IMG/VR virus record: IMGVR_UViG_3300042887_004758
Span: 45,982-109,981 of that record
Length of the DNA: 64,000 nucleotides
From: a virus
Reading direction: 5' to 3' (one strand)
Under the pieces are notes generated by a model, which worked only from the letters and a program-made list of their open reading frames with translations, made no database searches and was not told where the DNA came from. The translations under genes were made by a program, and so were the position numbers. Positions 25,791 through 46,182 of this stretch are shown piece by piece; within the stretch, counting starts at the first letter, position 1, and each line of letters begins with the position of its first letter.

Positions 25791-27998
25791 ATGCCATTAG
25801 GACAACTCTGTTTAACTGATTTAGGTGGATTCGAATTAACCGATTTGGTTAATATCTATTCCAATGTTGATGGGTTTACCACCCCAATTGTTCAAGATGT
25901 TTTGATCGAATCTATGGCGTCTTCTGAAGAGAGTTGTCCTTACTTGTTGACAGATGTACCCGAAGGTACAACACAAATTTATATAGAGACCGTTGGCGGT
26001 GAAGTATGTTTATATTTACCATTTCAAGAGATAAACTTATGTGAAGATTGTGATTTTGGTTTCAATGAATACACCGCTCAGACGATTGGTATACTCTCTG
26101 TTGGTATTTTGACTGCATCATGTACAAGTGAAATCACCGACTACGTAATTGATTGGTTTAATTCAAACGGTGAAGTTGTATTAACAAGTGGTTTTGGTGA
26201 TCAATTTGCCTATACCTTTCCACACCCAATGACGGGCAATGCATCACCACCTATAAATCCAGGTATATATGAACCAATTATCAGACAAGTTTTGATAAAT
26301 GGCGTAATCTTTTCATCGGTCGAATTTGGTAATAATAATGTTTTGACTTCATTAAGTGGATGTTTACCTAATATTGAAGTAATTGTTTCTCCGAACACCT
26401 GTGACAATGGAAACACTCCAAATGGTACTTATAGTCATAGTGTCACATATAACGCAGTCGTTGGTGAAATACCCTCGTCAATGGATATAGTCTTGGAAAT
26501 AGATTCGAGCGTAAACTATATTGCTTGGGCATTTGATGCCGATGCGATCACTGATCAGATTAAAGTTGTTTTTTCAGGATCGGCATATTCAGAAAAATAT
26601 ATTTTAGATTGGTTCAATGTTGGTCAATTGAATATATCTACAAGTTTTTCAGAACCACCTCCGTATGAAATACAATTTTTACAATCATCATCTGGTGATA
26701 GACAAGATTTGAAAAAAGTAAATTGTTTGACAGGATTTACTGTTTCTGAAGGGGACAAAATAATTTTTGAAGTGATTCCGAATCAATTGAATAATAATAC
26801 AAATTGGAATTTAAGATATAAATGCTTAGAAACATTTGATTGTGAATCTTGTTGGTTGACCGGTACTTCAAAAATTAATTTAACAAATGCGTTTGGAATA
26901 AATTCAATTCAAAATACTTGCACAGATAGAAGAGCCTTCTTATTTAATTTAAGTGGGTCATGTAGTAGTTTTGAAGACAACCTAAATGATTACTTTCAAA
27001 CTCAATTCATTATAAATCCACCAGGGGTTAACCCTACTTGGCCGAATACAGGTTCTTACTTTATAAATAGATTTCTCCCTAACGGATCAACCTCATATTG
27101 GGACACAACCTATTTATATTTTACACAATTAAGTTATAGTAGTTTTCCGATCAGTATTTCTCCCGCATGTAATACACCAAGCACCAACCAAATTCAATTT
27201 ACCAAAACTTATAACCCAGGTATACAAGAGGCAACTATCTACATGTATTTTACTAATCAATCTGAATTTTTATCGTATTGGAATAATTATCTCAGTGTTA
27301 GTAACCAATTTTCACCAACACAAAACACAAATGATCCTGAATATTATGAAGGTTATGTTTTCATAGTAAGACCACAACTGACACCAAATACTCAATGTGG
27401 TGATACAAGTCCTGATCCTATAACTTATTATATACCTAAAGATGCTTTATTCGTATCAGGACAAACAGATGGTGGAGGGTACGAACTTCAAGTTTTTTGG
27501 GGTCCAGTATATAATAACATTTCCGCATCGAATTGTGCGTATGGTACAATAAACAGTGTGGTTAATAGTTACACAAATTCTAGAACAGGAAATAATACTT
27601 CATTTACCAATAATAAAGGATCAAGACCTATAGATCCTGTTGGTAAGCTTGAAATTTCGACAATTAATTCACTTAATACTGGTGTAACTTTAAGCTATAA
27701 TTGGGTTTTCCATAGAAAATTAAATGAGACTTTACCAAGAAATTATAACGATACAAATATTATATATCCACAATACAGTTCTGTAACGTGCCCAAATTTA
27801 TATACTTTGGATCAAGCAAATAGTCCAAATACGGATTACTATAGAAGAATTTATGCTAGATATAGAATAGAATTAATAAATCCAAGTGATCCTGAAGAAT
27901 TCCGTGTCTTGAGTCAGTCAGTATCGGGAAATGATTTGGCGTTTGTTTTTAGTGGAGGAACAATAAATAATGTGAATACAAATTATGTAATTCAATAA
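25791..27998 (+). CDS. Putative virion structural protein (beta-rich, Cys/Asn/Thr-rich)
   Basis: 735-aa ORF with composition like the neighbouring fibre/decoration proteins; no long PT tract. Confidence 0.6.
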   Translation: MPLGQLCLTDLGGFELTDLVNIYSNVDGFTTPIVQDVLIESMASSEESCPYLLTDVPEGTTQIYIETVGGEVCLYLPFQEINLCEDCDFGFNEYTAQTIGILSVGILTASCTSEITDYVIDWFNSNGEVVLTSGFGDQFAYTFPHPMTGNASPPINPGIYEPIIRQVLINGVIFSSVEFGNNNVLTSLSGCLPNIEVIVSPNTCDNGNTPNGTYSHSVTYNAVVGEIPSSMDIVLEIDSSVNYIAWAFDADAITDQIKVVFSGSAYSEKYILDWFNVGQLNISTSFSEPPPYEIQFLQSSSGDRQDLKKVNCLTGFTVSEGDKIIFEVIPNQLNNNTNWNLRYKCLETFDCESCWLTGTSKINLTNAFGINSIQNTCTDRRAFLFNLSGSCSSFEDNLNDYFQTQFIINPPGVNPTWPNTGSYFINRFLPNGSTSYWDTTYLYFTQLSYSSFPISISPACNTPSTNQIQFTKTYNPGIQEATIYMYFTNQSEFLSYWNNYLSVSNQFSPTQNTNDPEYYEGYVFIVRPQLTPNTQCGDTSPDPITYYIPKDALFVSGQTDGGGYELQVFWGPVYNNISASNCAYGTINSVVNSYTNSRTGNNTSFTNNKGSRPIDPVGKLEISTINSLNTGVTLSYNWVFHRKLNETLPRNYNDTNIIYPQYSSVTCPNLYTLDQANSPNTDYYRRIYARYRIELINPSDPEEFRVLSQSVSGNDLAFVFSGGTINNVNTNYVIQ

Positions 27999-37978: not shown

Positions 37979-39739
37979 TTAAGAGAAGTGTTCCGTAATT
38001 AAATTTAAGATTTCTTCGGCCACACTTCCGTCATCAACATTATCCCCCATAACGGTTTCAAAAATATCTTTTTTCTTGGTTAGAATATCATAAATCGCAC
38101 CTTCAATCGTATTTTCAAAGATCGGATAATAAACGCTGACTTTGTTGTTTTGTCCAATCCTGTAAGCCCTGTCCTCAGCTTGAGAATGATCTGACGGGAC
38201 AAATGATAGGTCGTTCATTATCACCACCTCGGCGGCGGTTAAGGTAATACCGACACCGGCAGCTTTTAAATTTCCGATAAAAACTTTAACATTTTCATCG
38301 TTTTGAAATTTGTCCACCGCTTCTTGTCTCTTTGTTTTGGAACAAGATCCATCAAGATAAACACAATCTTTTTTGTAATAATCCACAAACTGATTTAAAG
38401 TGTCGGTAAAATTGGTAAAGATAATCACCTTTTTTTCCTGATCTATTGCCGAGTTTGCAATTTCTATTGTATTTTGTATTTTTTCTTGGGCGATTATCTG
38501 TCTGACCTTCATTAATTTGGAGAACTGAAGTGCCAAAGATTTGGATTCCTCACTATTTCTATACCACTCATAATATTCACCCATCAAACTCTTATATAAG
38601 TTGGATTGTAGATTCAAATAGACGGGTGTTCTAATTTTATCGGGAAGATCCAAGATGTCTTCTTTTAATCTTCTTAAGATGGTGGGTTGAGTTCTTTCTC
38701 GGAGTTCTTCAAGATTTGATGCTCCGTTTACATTCCATATCAACCTGTTTCCTGCTCTGAATTGAAATCCGTTACAATACCTTCTTACATATGCCATCCA
38801 ATTTTGAGCAACGGAAGAGTCAACCAACTCCAAAAGGTTAAAATAGTTAATCGGTCTTGAGGTAAGTGGGGTTCCTGTAAGCAACCAAACCCGACCAATT
38901 TTTTCTGCCACATCATTACAAAGTTTGGTTCTCGCTGCTTTTTTATTTTGAATATAATGTGCTTCATCAATAATAACCAAATCAAAGTTTTCTTTAAGAA
39001 TGGTAGAGTTTTCTCTATTTGATTCATCGTGGAAGTTTTTGATGATATCATAATTTACAATTACATAATCAGCACTTTCCCACTTTTTCCCTTCAACTAT
39101 TGATATGGTTTTATCGGTATAGTTTTTAATTTCTCTATACCAATTGATCTTCAAAGAGGCGGGACAAATAATTAAAACCTTCTTGGATTCAACTTCCAAA
39201 GATGCAATTACTGTTGAGGTTGTTTTTCCAAGACCCATATCGTCAGCCAATATAAACTTATCATTAGAAACCAATTTTTCGATTGCGATTTTTTGGTGTT
39301 CCATAGGTGGTCGGACAGAATACTTATCATAGTCTATTTTTACCTCTTTTTGTTTCTTCAACAAACTGGCTTTTGGTAAATAGAAGTCGTGTAAATCTTC
39401 ACTTTCAAAAAACTTCCCCCACACATGAAACGCCTTATCACCCTCAACCAATAGTTTTTCAATATAAACTTGTTTTGGTGGTTCGGATAATAATTTATCA
39501 AGAAATATTTTCTCTGAAAAATAAAAATCAATATCAACCCACTTTCTGGCGACCTTTGGGGTTTTGTCGTGGTTTTCTAAAATATATGTCGCTTGGTTTT
39601 TGGAGATCTTAAAGTTCTTTTGATTTTTTGAACTTTTTTTTAATTTCAGGATATAATTATTGGAACCTTCATAGGTGTCCAAAATTGACATCGCCTTAAC
39701 TTCAGGCAAATTATGTGTCTTGGATGTTTTTTCTCCCAT
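37979..39739 (-). CDS. SNF2-family helicase/ATPase (SMARCAL1-like)
   Basis: LADDMGLGKT, DEAH, LTGTP, LRRLK, AGVGITLT, QAEDRAYRIGQ. Confidence 0.92.
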   Translation of the reverse strand: MGEKTSKTHNLPEVKAMSILDTYEGSNNYILKLKKSSKNQKNFKISKNQATYILENHDKTPKVARKWVDIDFYFSEKIFLDKLLSEPPKQVYIEKLLVEGDKAFHVWGKFFESEDLHDFYLPKASLLKKQKEVKIDYDKYSVRPPMEHQKIAIEKLVSNDKFILADDMGLGKTTSTVIASLEVESKKVLIICPASLKINWYREIKNYTDKTISIVEGKKWESADYVIVNYDIIKNFHDESNRENSTILKENFDLVIIDEAHYIQNKKAARTKLCNDVAEKIGRVWLLTGTPLTSRPINYFNLLELVDSSVAQNWMAYVRRYCNGFQFRAGNRLIWNVNGASNLEELRERTQPTILRRLKEDILDLPDKIRTPVYLNLQSNLYKSLMGEYYEWYRNSEESKSLALQFSKLMKVRQIIAQEKIQNTIEIANSAIDQEKKVIIFTNFTDTLNQFVDYYKKDCVYLDGSCSKTKRQEAVDKFQNDENVKVFIGNLKAAGVGITLTAAEVVIMNDLSFVPSDHSQAEDRAYRIGQNNKVSVYYPIFENTIEGAIYDILTKKKDIFETVMGDNVDDGSVAEEILNLITEHFS

Positions 39740-39782: not shown

Positions 39783-40256
39783 ATGAAAGACCTGATCAAA
39801 AAAATATTAAAAGAGGAAACATCAGATCTCAAACCCGCATTGATTAAAGCATTCTATGGTTTCATGGAAATGGAGACACAAGGTTATGAGATTTATGTTG
39901 ATATTCCTGAAAACAGATTTAGATACAATCCTGAGTCCATTTGGATCATCAATCCAAAGACCAAAGGATGGATTATAGGATTACTAAAATCAGGAAAACT
40001 TTGGTATTATGGCCCACTTTACGACAATTTTTTAAATTGGTTTAATGAGGAACGTTCTGTATTTGAACAACTTATAAGGATGTGGGTGGAGGACGTTCTC
40101 AAAAGAGGGGTATTAACAATTCCGGTCCCAATGCCGGCAGCGATCCGTTCGGTGGGGGACGTTCTCAAAAGAGGGATATTAACAACACGGTTTCACTTCG
40201 CTCCAGGGGACGACCGGGTGGAAGACGTTCTCAAAAAAGGAATTAAAATATCATGA
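39783..40256 (+). CDS. Hypothetical protein with MKDLIKKILKEET leader and C-terminal 22-aa repeats containing hypervariable segments
   Basis: Paralog of the next ORF; three VxDVLK(R/K)G units. Confidence 0.8.
   Translation: MKDLIKKILKEETSDLKPALIKAFYGFMEMETQGYEIYVDIPENRFRYNPESIWIINPKTKGWIIGLLKSGKLWYYGPLYDNFLNWFNEERSVFEQLIRMWVEDVLKRGVLTIPVPMPAAIRSVGDVLKRGILTTRFHFAPGDDRVEDVLKKGIKIS
40085..40250 (+). repeat. In-frame repeat/spacer array: 35-nt repeats, 31-nt unique segments, 66-nt period
   Basis: Repeats start at 40085, 40151 and 40217 (GGTGG(A/G)(G/A)GACGTTCTCAAAA...); the first two are 33/35 identical. Confidence 0.9.
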
Positions 40257-40660
40257 AAGACCTAATCAAGAAAATATTAAAAGAGGAAACATCGGATATC
40301 AAACCGTCTTTGATCAGAGCATTCTATACTTTCATGGAGATGGAAATGGAGGGTTATAACATTTATGTAGATACTCCTGAAAATAGATTTGAATACAATC
40401 CTGAATCCATTTGGATTATAAATCCAGACACTAAAGGATGGATTATAGGATTTAAAAGGTTCGGAAAACTTTGGTATAACACTCAACTTTACGAAAATTT
40501 TTTAATTTGGTTTAAGGAGGACAAATCTGTATTTGAACAACTTATAACGATGTGGGTGGAGGACTTTCTAAGAAGAAAAGTGTCAACAATACGAATGATT
40601 TACACCGATATGAATCCCGAGGTGGAGGACGTTCTCATTACAGGAATTGAACTACAATGA
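40253..40660 (+). CDS. Paralog of 39783 with one fewer 22-aa unit
   Basis: Colinear with the previous ORF; 135 vs 157 aa; repeats start at 40555 and 40621. Confidence 0.8.
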   Translation: MKDLIKKILKEETSDIKPSLIRAFYTFMEMEMEGYNIYVDTPENRFEYNPESIWIINPDTKGWIIGFKRFGKLWYNTQLYENFLIWFKEDKSVFEQLITMWVEDFLRRKVSTIRMIYTDMNPEVEDVLITGIELQ

Positions 40661-41130
40661 AAGACTTAATCAAAAAAATTTTAAAAGAGGAAACAGAAGA
40701 GGTATTGGTAATACCGGGTTTTAATATTTTTCTTGATGGTGAAGAAGGATTACTTAATTTTTTGAGAAAATACGGTCATAAAAAATGGTCATTTAATGAT
40801 GATTTAGATTTTTTCAACAGAAAAATTCTTGTAACTCTTTTTGATAACCCTGAAGACCTAAAATATTTAAATAATTTGGTTGATGTTTATGGTGAACTTG
40901 ATCTTTATAGGGTTAAAGATTTAAAAAGTTTAAATAATTTAAAACGTGTGTATGGTAATATGGATATTCGTGGAACTTCAATCACATCGTTAGATAGTTT
41001 GGAATATGTTGAAGGTGCTTTAAGGGTTAATTCAAAACTTATTGAACCAATTCTTGAACGAATAAAGTCAGGGAAACTTAAAGTTGAGGAACTATATCAT
41101 TATTTCGACCAAGTACCACTACCCGAATAA
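40657..41130 (+). CDS. Leucine-rich repeat (L-domain-like) protein with MKDLIKKILKEET leader
   Basis: LKYLNNLVDVYGELDL / LKSLNNLKRVYGNMDI / ITSLDSLEYVEGALRV repeats. Confidence 0.75.
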   Translation: MKDLIKKILKEETEEVLVIPGFNIFLDGEEGLLNFLRKYGHKKWSFNDDLDFFNRKILVTLFDNPEDLKYLNNLVDVYGELDLYRVKDLKSLNNLKRVYGNMDIRGTSITSLDSLEYVEGALRVNSKLIEPILERIKSGKLKVEELYHYFDQVPLPE

Positions 41131-42999: not shown

Positions 43000-45900
43000 A
43001 TGGCAACAGCAAATTCAGTATTCGTATCTCCTGGAGTATATACTTCAGAACGAGACTTATCATTTGTGGCTCAAAGTGTTGGTGTTACCACATTAGGTCT
43101 CGTCGGTGAGACTTTACAGGGACCCGCGTTTGAACCCGTCTTCATCAGAAATTTCGATGAATTCCAATTGTATTTTGGAGGAACCAATCCAACCAAATTT
43201 GTAAACACTCAAATCCCAAAATATGAAGCGGCTTATATAGCTAAAGCATATCTTCAACAATCTAATCAACTTTTTGTAACAAGAATTTTGGGTCTTTCGG
43301 GATATGATGCTGGACCATCTTGGTCTATCAAAACAATATCTAATCCCGATGTGAACACCATAGGTCTTTCTTCTGACTTGGGCACCTTTGGTTTCACTTT
43401 CGTCGGTACAACAGCATCAACCACTAGTATAACTATCACTCTTTCAGGTGGTGGTGCTAGTTCTTATATTTCAAGTGTCACTGGAAACACTGTAACTTTT
43501 GCAGATGGTACAAGTTCTACTATCTTGGATGAACTTGAGGGTTTTGCTTTTGATGTTATTTCCGATAATACTTTATCTGGTGATACAGCATATGTATATG
43601 GTTCTTTATCTGCCGGTACGTTCAACGCTCTCACCGCTGCTGGTTTCACTGAACTCGTCAATGTTTTTGGTTGTGATAATCTGAACGAGTCAAGTGCTGA
43701 TTTAACAGCAGTTAGTAATGACACTTGGTACTACGGTTTGTTTGAGTTGACAAATAATACATACTCAGGTCTTTCATTCTCTTCTCGTATTTCGACTCTT
43801 GTAACCAATGGTACAGGTTCGTATACAGGAACTTGTGTTGGTTTTGTGAACTCCTATACCGCTGACACTTATTCTGATTCACATGATTTGATCGTGGGTA
43901 CATTCAGATCTCGAGGAGTTTCTCAATACACCGATAATACTAATCCTACTTATGAGGTTACAGGAACTACCGATGTTGTTATGTTAGACAACTTGGATGG
44001 TATTTCACAAAATCCTTTCAACAATTTCACAGTTTCTGGTATTACCAAAGATTCTGTCACCTTCAGTTTCCAAACTTCTTTCCAATCATCGAATACCGAC
44101 TTTGTCGGAAAAGTATTTGGTAGATCTAACTTTAACAAAGATAGAACCGAGGTTCCTTTGTTCATCGAGGAGGAATATTCAGGTCTTTTAGCGACACTTT
44201 ACAACCAAGGTAAAGTTAGAGGTCTCTCTACAAGTTTGGTGTCGTTCGATTCCGCTCAAAGTTTGGATCCTAACACTATCGGTTGGTACTGTGAACAATA
44301 TCAGACACCCGCGACACCTTACGTGGTTTCAGAACTGCGTGGTGATATAGTGGAAAGATTGTTCAGATTTATTTCAATTTCTGACGGAAACAATGCAAAT
44401 AGACAAATTAAGATTTCTTTGGTCAACATGTCTTTCGCAAACAATAACTTTGACATTTTAGTTCGTGATTTCTACGACACAGATGAAAATCCTGTTGTTT
44501 TAGAGAGATTTGCAAACTGTACGATGAATGTTTCAAGTCCGAGCTACATCGCTCAGAAAGTCGGAACAGCTAATGGTGAATATGAGTTGAAATCTAAGTA
44601 CATCATGCTCGAATTAGTGGAGGGTCACCCAGTTGACGCACTTCCTTGTGGATTCGAAGGTTATATTTCGAGAAATTACTCAACAAATATTTCACCTTTC
44701 TTGGTCTATAAAACACAATACTACACACCTGGTCAACTTGTTTATACCCCTCCATTTAACATTCCTGTACTAACAGCGGGTGGTGGAGCTTCTAATGTAA
44801 GAAGTTCGGGAGATAAGGTAAGAAGAACTTACTTGGGTATTTCGAATGTACAAGGATTCGATGCTGACTTCTTCTCCTACAAAGGAAAACAATTACCTGA
44901 CAATATAGCTACTGACACCACCTCGGCAGATTGGAACTACCTAACTCAAGGTTTCCATATGGATGTTAATGCAAGTGCAATTACAATACCAAGTACTTAC
45001 GTCACTTCAGGTCAAACAGCTTACCAATGTGGTGTTGCTACCTTCCAAGCAGAACCAACATCTTCATCAAGTCCATACTATAAAATTTTCTCACGTAAAT
45101 TTACTATTTTACCGGCAGGTGGTTTTGACGGGTGGGACATCTACAGAGAATACAGAACTAACGCGGACGCTTACCAACTCGGAGATACAAAATATCTTCT
45201 TGGGGCCGCAGCAACGGCTCAATTCCCTGACGCGTCAGGATGGGGAGCATTCAAGAAAATTACCGATGGTGAAAACACAGAGTGGGCGAATACTGACTAC
45301 TACGCTTACCTCAAAGGTTTCCAAACATTCAATAATCCAGCGTCTGTCAACATCAACGTATTTGTAACACCGGGTATTGATTATGTAAATAACTTAGCTT
45401 TGGTACTAGACGCTATTGATATTGTAGAACAGGATAGAGCTGACTCGATTTACATTACCACTACACCCGATTATGAAATGTTTGTGTCATCCACCTCGAA
45501 TCCTGATGACTTCATCTACCCAACAGATGCGGTGGTTAATTTAGAGGACAGTGACATCGATTCGAACTATACCGCTACATACTACCCTTGGATTTTGGTA
45601 AAAGATAGTGTGAACAATACAAATCTTTGGATCCCACCAACATCTGAGGTTGTAAGGAACTTAGCTCTTACCGACAACATTGCTTTCCCTTGGTTTGCAT
45701 CGGCGGGTTACTCGAGAGGTTTGGTTAATGCGGTCAAAGCAAGAAGAAAACTCACACAAGAAGATAGAGACATCCTTTATCAAGGAAGAATCAACCCGAT
45801 CGCAACATTCTCTGATGTGGGTCCTGTGATTTGGGGTAATAAAACTCTCCAAGTTCGTGAGTCGGCACTTGACAGAATCAACGTAAGAAGATTGTTGTTA

Positions 45901-46182
45901 CAAGCTCGTAAGTTGATTTCAGCGGTTGCTGTGAGACTTCTCTTCGAACAAAACGACCAACAAGTTAGACAAGACTTCTTGGACGCAGTCAATCCAATCT
46001 TGGATGGTATAAGAAGGGACAGAGGTTTGACGGACTTCAGAGTGACGGTTTCAAGTTCTCCTGAAGATATTGATAGAAACCAATTGACTGGTAAGATTTA
46101 CATCAAACCAACAAGATCTTTGGAATTTATTGACATCGAATTTGTAATCACACCAACAGGTGCATCATTCGAAAATATCTAA
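43000..46182 (+). CDS. Contractile tail sheath protein (gp18-like)
   Basis: VSPGVYTSERDLS, YYPW, PWFASAGYSRG, RINPI, WGNKTL, RINVRRLL, IKPTRSLEFI. Confidence 0.95.
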   Translation: MATANSVFVSPGVYTSERDLSFVAQSVGVTTLGLVGETLQGPAFEPVFIRNFDEFQLYFGGTNPTKFVNTQIPKYEAAYIAKAYLQQSNQLFVTRILGLSGYDAGPSWSIKTISNPDVNTIGLSSDLGTFGFTFVGTTASTTSITITLSGGGASSYISSVTGNTVTFADGTSSTILDELEGFAFDVISDNTLSGDTAYVYGSLSAGTFNALTAAGFTELVNVFGCDNLNESSADLTAVSNDTWYYGLFELTNNTYSGLSFSSRISTLVTNGTGSYTGTCVGFVNSYTADTYSDSHDLIVGTFRSRGVSQYTDNTNPTYEVTGTTDVVMLDNLDGISQNPFNNFTVSGITKDSVTFSFQTSFQSSNTDFVGKVFGRSNFNKDRTEVPLFIEEEYSGLLATLYNQGKVRGLSTSLVSFDSAQSLDPNTIGWYCEQYQTPATPYVVSELRGDIVERLFRFISISDGNNANRQIKISLVNMSFANNNFDILVRDFYDTDENPVVLERFANCTMNVSSPSYIAQKVGTANGEYELKSKYIMLELVEGHPVDALPCGFEGYISRNYSTNISPFLVYKTQYYTPGQLVYTPPFNIPVLTAGGGASNVRSSGDKVRRTYLGISNVQGFDADFFSYKGKQLPDNIATDTTSADWNYLTQGFHMDVNASAITIPSTYVTSGQTAYQCGVATFQAEPTSSSSPYYKIFSRKFTILPAGGFDGWDIYREYRTNADAYQLGDTKYLLGAAATAQFPDASGWGAFKKITDGENTEWANTDYYAYLKGFQTFNNPASVNINVFVTPGIDYVNNLALVLDAIDIVEQDRADSIYITTTPDYEMFVSSTSNPDDFIYPTDAVVNLEDSDIDSNYTATYYPWILVKDSVNNTNLWIPPTSEVVRNLALTDNIAFPWFASAGYSRGLVNAVKARRKLTQEDRDILYQGRINPIATFSDVGPVIWGNKTLQVRESALDRINVRRLLLQARKLISAVAVRLLFEQNDQQVRQDFLDAVNPILDGIRRDRGLTDFRVTVSSSPEDIDRNQLTGKIYIKPTRSLEFIDIEFVITPTGASFENI

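Follow-up and report, generated by a model that had tools for sequence, protein, structure and literature searches.

Array-bearing genes of an uncultured lake phage

The window, that is, the whole 64,000-nucleotide stretch of DNA analyzed here, comes from an IMG/VR virus record of 109,981 bp, which is estimated to be 36% complete and has a GC content of 34.5%. It belongs to a large uncultured lake phage in which two adjoining genes end in DNA that resembles a CRISPR array and is translated. Three short genes on the plus strand, chained to one another by ATGA overlaps, are located between a gene for a SNF2-type helicase on the minus strand (37979–39739) and a group of structural genes. The latter include a 1,060-residue tail sheath, the nearest cultured relatives of which are from a Microcystis phage, T4-like cyanophages and a Flavobacterium phage. 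No tRNA gene was found in the window. The idea of a cyanophage host was set aside, given that psbA is absent from the five phage records searched.

Gene 1 (39783–40256) contains its array in frame within the open reading frame. An N-terminal domain of about 100 residues (39783–40084), without a match in Pfam or PDB, continues through its last helix into the first repeat of 36 nt (40085–40120), which codes for VEDVLKRGVLT and the first two bases of the following codon. It is followed by insert 1 of 30 nt with 20/30 GC (40121–40150), a second 36-nt repeat (40151–40186), insert 2 of 30 nt with 19/30 GC (40187–40216), and a degenerate terminal repeat with the stop codon (40217–40256), which overlaps the start of gene 2 by ATGA. 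Gene 2 (40253–40660), the array of which is likewise in frame, is a paralog with 83% nucleotide identity over 300 nt. According to the list of open reading frames and sequence comparison, its N-terminal domain (40253–40554) is a paralog of that of gene 1; the domain is succeeded by a 36-nt repeat (40555–40590; 27/35 identical to the first repeat of gene 1), an insert of 30 nt with 12/30 GC (40591–40620), the cassette peptide of which recurs in the metagenome locus L167, and a degenerate terminal repeat with the stop codon (40621–40660), again in ATGA overlap with the next gene. Gene 3 (40657–41130) has no array, and only its 13-residue N-terminus is shared with the other two. Gene 1 thus consists of two full units plus a truncated terminal repeat, and gene 2 of one unit plus a terminal repeat. 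The core of the repeat occurs three times in the window compared to zero times in 100 shuffles, and only 0.3% of the 30-nt stretches of the window reach 19/30 GC.

A first-pass annotation of this DNA had described 35-nt repeats separated by 31-nt segments. The regular plan of repeats and inserts holds; however, the boundaries do not, as the family-wide alignment yields 36 + 30 nt. Upon recounting, the repeats at 40085 and 40151 are indeed identical at 33/35 positions, with the remaining repeats matching at 21–28/35. The three 31-mers are as dissimilar as claimed (identical at 11, 8 and 10 of 31 positions). The two of gene 1 have the GC count given for them (20 of 31 each), and that of gene 2 has 12 of 31. 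The alignment also agrees with the earlier view of gene 2 as a paralog of the same geometry with one unit fewer than gene 1.

A family of proteins with a folded domain and a repetitive tail

At least 1,159 proteins of a large protein collection are relatives of these genes, on contigs of up to 294 kb, and none has a Pfam domain. The carriers are freshwater phages of 100–320 kb, and the relatives found in IMG/VR and lake metagenomes range from close ones at 65%–80% identity to distant ones at about 30%. All follow a common plan, in which an N-terminal domain of about 85–100 residues precedes n units of 12 constant plus 10 variable residues. A gene may contain up to 15 or more units, and several family genes stand in tandem in one genome; array-less paralogs with the N-terminal domain occur in the same phages.

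The AF2 model of the window protein was of low confidence, and the N-terminal domain of the L009 homolog was used for the fold search instead. AlphaFold predicted for this domain, with a pLDDT above 90, a helix, four strands and two helices, the last of which is coded by the first repeat. The C-terminal tail of L009 is predicted to be disordered (pLDDT of about 30). The inserts, for which exposed loops had been considered, are thus placed by the prediction in a disordered tail behind a folded domain. A fold search against PDB gave no solved structure above a Z score of 5.1 for the L009 domain, and neither Pfam nor PHROG gave a match above threshold for the domain or the repeat. The BFVD matches of the domain are exclusively uncharacterized proteins of uncultured phages, ESM Atlas gave no usable match, and a search of the cultured-phage database found the array genes to be without relatives at either the DNA or the protein level.

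Selection for translation

Not a single in-frame stop codon is present in 144 inserts, against 71 ± 6 expected from shuffling, whereas the two other frames of the same inserts contain 49 and 87. In the subfamily of the window alone, 0 of 24 inserts have an in-frame stop against 8.2 ± 2.3 expected. Furthermore, 291 of the measured repeat spacings are 66 nt, and all remaining ones within an array are multiples of 3, the unit length varying by ±3, +6 or +9 nt. No genuine CRISPR array of Bacteroidota with this geometry keeps a single frame open from end to end. As judged from sequence, the arrays are under strong selection for translation through their whole length.

The repeat as a DNA unit

Alignment of 144 independent units revealed that the conserved block is exactly 36 nt long and is out of phase with the codons. 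It opens with base 3 of the codon that closes the insert, which is G in 136/144 units, and at positions 35–36 it takes in bases 1 and 2 of a Thr codon. Information falls from 1.7 to about 0.1 bit across both edges of the repeat, and each of the 30 insert positions holds 0.01–0.15 bit. In 43 genes, the conserved residues of the N-terminal domain are encoded by mixed synonymous codons, with a mean major-codon fraction of 0.67, whereas the codons of the repeat are near-fixed (GTG 40/40, GAG 39/39 and AAG 33/33). These repeat codons end in G, yet G makes up less than 20% of third positions in these genomes. Selection at the protein level alone is therefore an insufficient explanation, and the repeat is a unit of DNA, not merely of peptide. 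The hairpin of the repeat is weakly conserved: 72.8% of cells are paired against 70.5% in shuffles, with a few compensatory pairs, and some subfamilies have no predicted structure.

Part of this pattern would be expected of an ordinary old coding repeat, in which 22-residue modules, with a constant half maintained by constraints on protein and recombination and with long-diverged variable halves, are shuffled by homologous recombination between the 36-nt repeats within or between co-infecting phages, and seemingly new inserts are old ones that have not been sampled. Such a repeat would fit the frame that is always open, the length variants in 3-nt steps and the differences between repeats, which are largely synonymous, as well as the V-E-[ED]-x-L...V..T pattern that deep subfamilies hold although their DNA changes, and the lack of cas1 and cas13b in the phage records. 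It leaves unexplained the fixed G at a third codon position just outside the constant peptide, and why rare codons ending in G are almost invariant among phages with N-terminal domains of only 30%–56% identity.

Inserts: relatedness, composition and source

The identity of insert pairs is two-peaked. Pairs are either identical at no more than 18/30 positions, as are codon-shuffled controls, or at 24/30 and above, in which case they are shared between related arrays; none is found at 19–23. Given this lack of intermediate similarity, the inserts are not derived from one another. Duplication and drift, which had already been considered a poor explanation, is ruled out by the gap. So is the localized hypermutation proposed earlier, given that shared inserts are 24–30/30 identical, without intermediates, and their pN/pS is about 0.26. 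The latter value, obtained over nine inner codons from only 25 substitutions, reflects mostly synonymous change and indicates that the insert peptides matter. Purifying selection on shared inserts would also be in line with the old coding repeat, whereas the missing intermediates and the near absence of positional signal in the inserts are not.

In amino-acid composition the inserts resemble translated random sequence, and their cores display no common residue pattern. At the DNA level, inserts of the window subfamily have a mean GC content of 57% (24 independent inserts) in a phage of 34.5% GC. Their third codon positions are 60% GC against 32%–34% in phage genes, and GC is flat across their codon positions. 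Since selection on amino acids is unable to yield 60% GC at third positions, the insert DNA is either foreign or the product of a GC-biased process; the old coding repeat provides no explanation for this value in a phage with about 33%. Inserts of the L009 type, which are 40% GC against 32% in the surrounding loci, have third positions near those of the phage, as that alternative would predict. A gradient of insert GC along the arrays, used as a test of amelioration, was not significant, with no fall in GC, and when the 3-nt periodicity of insert GC was tested as a sign of a coding origin, the outcome was marginal (p 0.06–0.08).

Hypervariable cores between flanks conserved at the DNA level are also a feature of cyanobactin patE-type precursors, which are natural peptide libraries with hypervariable cassettes, and cyanobactin-type cassettes offer a model for released peptides. 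The array genes share with them flanks that are constant down to synonymous sites, short unrelated cores and a variable number of cassettes. They differ in having a 95-residue folded N-terminal domain instead of a leader peptide, up to 15 or more cassettes and a phage context. The array might accordingly be a multi-core precursor, in which the 12-mers are sites of recognition or cleavage and the 10-mers are released, or a processed polyprotein similar to the capsid-targeted internal proteins that are cut by the prohead protease at x-E sites; either would be compatible with both origins of the inserts. The predicted disordered tail is consistent with processing, as are the three chained genes of this T4-like phage, which lie near a sheath gene and have in common a 13-residue N-terminus with L-K-E-E at its end. 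However, the cores lack a common residue pattern, and within 2.5 kb of the arrays at 52 loci, where flanking ORFs were compared by clustering, there is no common gene family except the array genes and no sign of maturation enzymes. We consider processing improbable.

With regard to where the inserts come from, none has a further copy in the phage genomes that could serve as a silent donor cassette. Searches of IMG/VR with exact 26-mers of inserts 1 and 2 gave no match, nor did the window inserts match anything in cultured phages or plasmids. Samples of Bacteroidota (401 and 301 genomes) gave no match within an insert in a search of poor sensitivity, which scored two candidates per genome that were filled by AT-rich gene junctions. 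Among 401 genomes of the genus of F. columnare, 1/46 inserts was matched: positions 2755–2784 of locus L024 are 27/30 identical to positions 27747–27776 of contig C15 in genome G669, starting from the first base of the insert and with unrelated flanks. The match lies antisense within a bacterial ORF of 438 residues and has an E-value some 300-fold better than that of any other match in that genome. About 0.15 in-register matches of this kind are estimated to occur by chance, so a bacterial source of the L024 insert is suggestive only. Two other queries against the genomes of this genus gave nothing inside inserts. The matches of a query from L013 in five of its genomes were discarded; they fell on the repeat, not the insert, where a bacterial gene codes for a similar peptide. 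Comparing the spacers of 80 bacterial CRISPR loci with phage DNA, and the phage inserts with those loci, gave only chance 14–18-mers. The search for protospacers that had been suggested for the inserts thus came out empty for the window itself and suggestive for one insert of the family.

The lack of a source for almost all inserts raises the question of untemplated synthesis, in which a polymerase would add random nucleotides at a break in the repeat and the products would be filtered for open frames. This would agree with the random-like composition of the inserts, their near-zero positional information and, in the window subfamily, the flat GC across codon positions. We regard it as the most improbable of the alternatives. 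A fixed length of 30 nt requires a ruler, and there is no candidate enzyme; subfamily GC contents of 40% and 57% fit different sources better than one enzyme, and one insert has an in-register bacterial match.

Turnover and polarity of the arrays

Shared inserts are collinear in 238/263 protein pairs, and related arrays differ from each other by whole 66-nt units. Sharing is roughly twofold more frequent for the last insert, at the far end (81 times), than for the first, domain-proximal one (43 times). Repeat mismatches to the array consensus rise from 5' to 3' over the quintiles of the array (2.0, 2.35, 2.76, 4.19 and 6.32; rho 0.41, p 3e-10), and the arrays close with a truncated terminal repeat. 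In the metagenome locus L164, insert 1 of the window is found 30/30 identical at array position 2, where another unit stands before it and the terminal repeat comes immediately after it, insert 2 being absent. The window phage and L164 thus differ by two 66-nt units with breakpoints inside the repeats. This comparison indicates that units are lost or exchanged via recombination between repeats and, given that unit differences are also internal and at the far end of arrays, that polarity is a tendency and not a rule.

Unit differences at both ends and in the interior, with breakpoints inside repeats, are what the shuffling of an old coding repeat would produce; the decay of repeats from 5' to 3' is not. 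Weighing its points on both sides, we regard it as the main alternative, although less likely than the model proposed below. The first-pass annotation had equated inserts that are conserved among related phages, and diverge no faster than the repeats, with an ordinary old protein repeat. Shared inserts are indeed conserved in this way. That alone does not identify an ordinary old repeat, since the inserts bear no relation to one another, their composition is foreign to the phage, and they come and go as entire units. The earlier proposal that a peptide scaffold exchanges cassettes or takes up foreign DNA, in contrast, fits the turnover of whole cassettes, the foreign composition in the window subfamily and the predicted disordered tail.

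Comparison with CRISPR systems and diversity-generating retroelements

The type VI-B and II-C arrays of F. columnare have 36-bp repeats and 30-nt spacers (PMC5395568, PMC8092290). The VI-B array is filled in trans by the II-C Cas1, from phage and host DNA, and ACAAC is the leader-distal motif that II-C and VI-B repeats served by one Cas1-Cas2 have in common (PMC8092290). A pattern scan of bacterial genomes based on the phage repeat recovered genuine VI-B arrays, for example from F. columnare and Bergeyella zoohelcum, and a neighboring ORF in F. columnare was confirmed as Cas13b. The phage arrays resemble type VI-B arrays in the 36-nt repeat, the unique 30-nt inserts, the turnover of whole units and the lack of an adjacent cas1. 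Further similarities are a repeat that starts with G-TGG and ends with ACAAC, a growth end on the GTTGG side by an upstream "leader", and a degenerate far repeat. They differ in that the array sits in a phage genome and inside an ORF, is free of stops and is translated, that changes between repeats are biased toward synonymous ones and length variants come in 3-nt steps, and that cas13b is missing and the hairpin is weak. Moreover, the 5' end of the phage repeat is GGTGG against GTTG in VI-B, 134/144 units having G instead of T as their second base.

A covariance model of 22 genuine VI-B repeats aligned with the phage repeats in register and scored 10–19 bits, with a best E-value of 0.11. The best identity between a phage and a VI-B repeat is 25/36, of which nine positions were preset by the search pattern. 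A search of Rfam with the repeats returned neither CRISPR-DR nor any other family. Given the marginal model score, the weak hairpin and the missing Rfam match, the link to Cas13b-type arrays is one of resemblance, not of membership, and the similarity of the phage repeats to CRISPR repeats is not statistically significant. The same three observations disfavor the earlier suggestion of a mini-array that yields small RNAs. Compared with CRISPR arrays in general, the phage arrays have near-identical repeats within the range of 23–55 nt and unique spacers of near-constant length. As a tendency, they also show the polarity expected of growth at a leader end, with a degenerate far repeat. However, CRISPR loci are non-coding, are transcribed and processed into crRNAs and have cas genes in the same genome, whereas here the frames are kept open and neither cas1 nor cas13b was found. 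The first-pass annotation had seen no cas1, reverse transcriptase or template repeat in the window, and this extends to five phage records (G000–G004), among them the complete genomes of 294 and 321 kb: Cas1 (PF01867), Cas13b (NF038190 and a Cas13b protein query) and reverse transcriptase (RVT_1) are absent from all of them.

Diversity-generating retroelements (DGRs) likewise target variation to a short part of a phage protein. However, variation in the arrays consists in the replacement of whole units instead of adenine-specific mutagenesis, and a template repeat is missing. With no reverse transcriptase in the five records and no second copy of an insert in the phage genomes, a DGR is ruled out.

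Huge phages reportedly contain compact arrays without cas genes, as Al-Shayeb et al. are said to have described in 2020. Such mini-arrays and solitary repeats resemble the arrays studied here as phage-borne repeat-spacer units without adaptation genes. A full-text literature search retrieved phage mini-arrays and RNA anti-CRISPRs, but neither a translated array nor a description of this family. Phage repeat mimics comprise RNA anti-CRISPRs (PMC10651486) and crRNA-like regulatory RNAs (bioRxiv 10.1101/2024.10.29.618823). Whereas mini-arrays and RNA anti-CRISPRs are non-coding and act as RNA, the arrays studied here are coding, are selected as protein and belong to a gene family present in several copies, in which they are joined to a folded domain. 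These precedents nevertheless make it conceivable that the array acts as RNA or DNA, imitating the CRISPR repeats of the host so as to sequester Cas13b or divert the spacer-integration machinery, its translation being tolerated but not needed. Such a decoy would be in agreement with the conservation of the repeat at the nucleotide level and with geometry and repeat ends similar to those of VI-B and II-C. It is at odds with zero stops in the sets of 144 and 24 inserts, the synonymous bias in shared inserts, a hairpin that is poorly conserved and missing in some subfamilies, and the marginal score of the VI-B model. We hold this to be a rather improbable reading.

A putative model of array growth

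The anatomy of the arrays, their selection for translation, the constraint on the repeat as DNA, the mutually unrelated inserts of foreign composition, the turnover of whole units and the 5'-to-3' decay of repeats are established here and enable us to propose a putative model. Units of repeat plus insert would be added whole from foreign DNA, most likely by host Cas1-Cas2 acting in trans, and then be selected as protein; we put this forward tentatively, as a reading whose probability falls slightly short of one half. In each event, the 36-nt repeat would be duplicated together with 30 nt of unrelated, non-phage DNA, giving one 66-nt unit. Given that 66 is a multiple of 3, each unit adds 12 constant plus 10 new residues to the disordered tail. 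New units would mostly enter at the domain-proximal end. Afterwards, units would be lost or exchanged through recombination between repeats. Only stop-free inserts would survive, and their peptides would then evolve under purifying selection.

Because no cas1, cas13b or reverse transcriptase is present in the five phage records, the inserting enzyme is one that we only infer. It would be a ruler-type integrase, most plausibly a type II-C Cas1-Cas2 of the host supplied in trans, as on the VI-B arrays that lack Cas1. The insert DNA would stem from the host chromosome. A more specific form of this proposal regards the arrays as live substrates of the host CRISPR integrase, with Cas1-Cas2 writing 30 nt of host or other DNA together with a copy of the repeat into the 3' end of the phage gene during infection, 10 residues at a time. 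In a variant, the phage genes would serve as a sink that diverts spacer integration from the arrays of the host. We consider such live integration possible, with a probability somewhat under one half. As for the function of the peptide string, our guess is that its short peptides act as binders or decoys and are borne by an accessory protein that may be injected.

In summary, even a conservative reading of these data leaves a large unannotated family of giant freshwater phages, with more than 1,100 proteins and several copies per genome. Its architecture is under dual constraint, as the repeat is fixed at the DNA level and unrelated peptides are each kept by selection. In practice, CRISPR finders will label these genes as arrays and gene callers will label them as proteins. 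If the proposed model is true, the arrays would represent a new route of protein diversification beside DGRs, cassette gene conversion and V(D)J-like joining. They would also represent a new interaction between phages and CRISPR adaptation, and the first case of CRISPR adaptation that acts on, and is selected through, coding sequence.

The two array genes of the window belong to a chain of three genes linked by ATGA overlaps. Gene 3 (40657-41130, plus strand) shares with genes 1 and 2 only its 13-residue N-terminus, which is followed by a leucine-rich-repeat-like body with a weak match to the Pfam family Recep_L_domain (E 0.005). Directly upstream of the array genes, at 37979-39739 on the minus strand, lies an SNF2-family helicase gene, which is also kept in the relatives L005 and L006. 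Further along the plus strand, a gene at 43000-46182 encodes a tail sheath of 1,060 residues, the closest counterparts of which occur in Microcystis phage Mel-JY01, in a 484-kb uncultured phage, in cyanophages and in Flavobacterium phage immuto.

At 102454-102669, 111437-111805, 155673-155951 and 158746-159328 of G001:C1, and at 984-2501 of G003:C1, these two phage records encode N-domain paralogs without an array. These proteins of 100-140 residues are present in several copies per genome, and their C-terminal helices are diverged and devoid of the DNA repeat. A more distant subfamily, represented by the metagenome loci L180, L181 and L182, differs in its N-terminal part and carries repeats of the type V-E-D-T-I-Q-N-G-V-K-x-T, in 11 to 16 or more units, with a period that drifts between 22 and 23 residues.

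Genomes of the F. columnare genus (G480, G547, G559, G596 and G739) share a conserved gene that codes for a phage-repeat-like peptide, FEEVFNHKAFTG. The corresponding stretch, at about 1501-1530 of locus L206 (G559:C1:10419-10448), is identical to one phage repeat copy at 27 of 30 nucleotides; this likeness could be due to chance, or could hint at the origin of the repeat. A genuine VI-B-type array is present in L107, a 10.5-kb contig titled Synechococcus sp. UW140 MAG. This title conflicts with the placement of its genome in the phylum of F. columnare, and the contig is possibly mis-binned.

In a few arrays (L009 2366-2930 and 3153-3780; L020 1298-1700; L028 2719-3050), two synonymous repeat variants that differ at positions 13-14 of the repeat take strict turns from one unit to the next, even though the intervening inserts are unrelated. 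Simple copying of the first repeat leaves this strict alternation unexplained. In one paralog, found at L004 (1192-1288) and at L005, L006, L007, L008, L166 and L168, the final insert measures 31 nt, which we count as a single evolutionary event across these loci. The extra length shifts the reading frame of the terminal repeat and gives the protein a different end. Despite the changed frame, the DNA of this terminal repeat is still conserved, which shows that the repeat is maintained as DNA even when its usual reading is lost.
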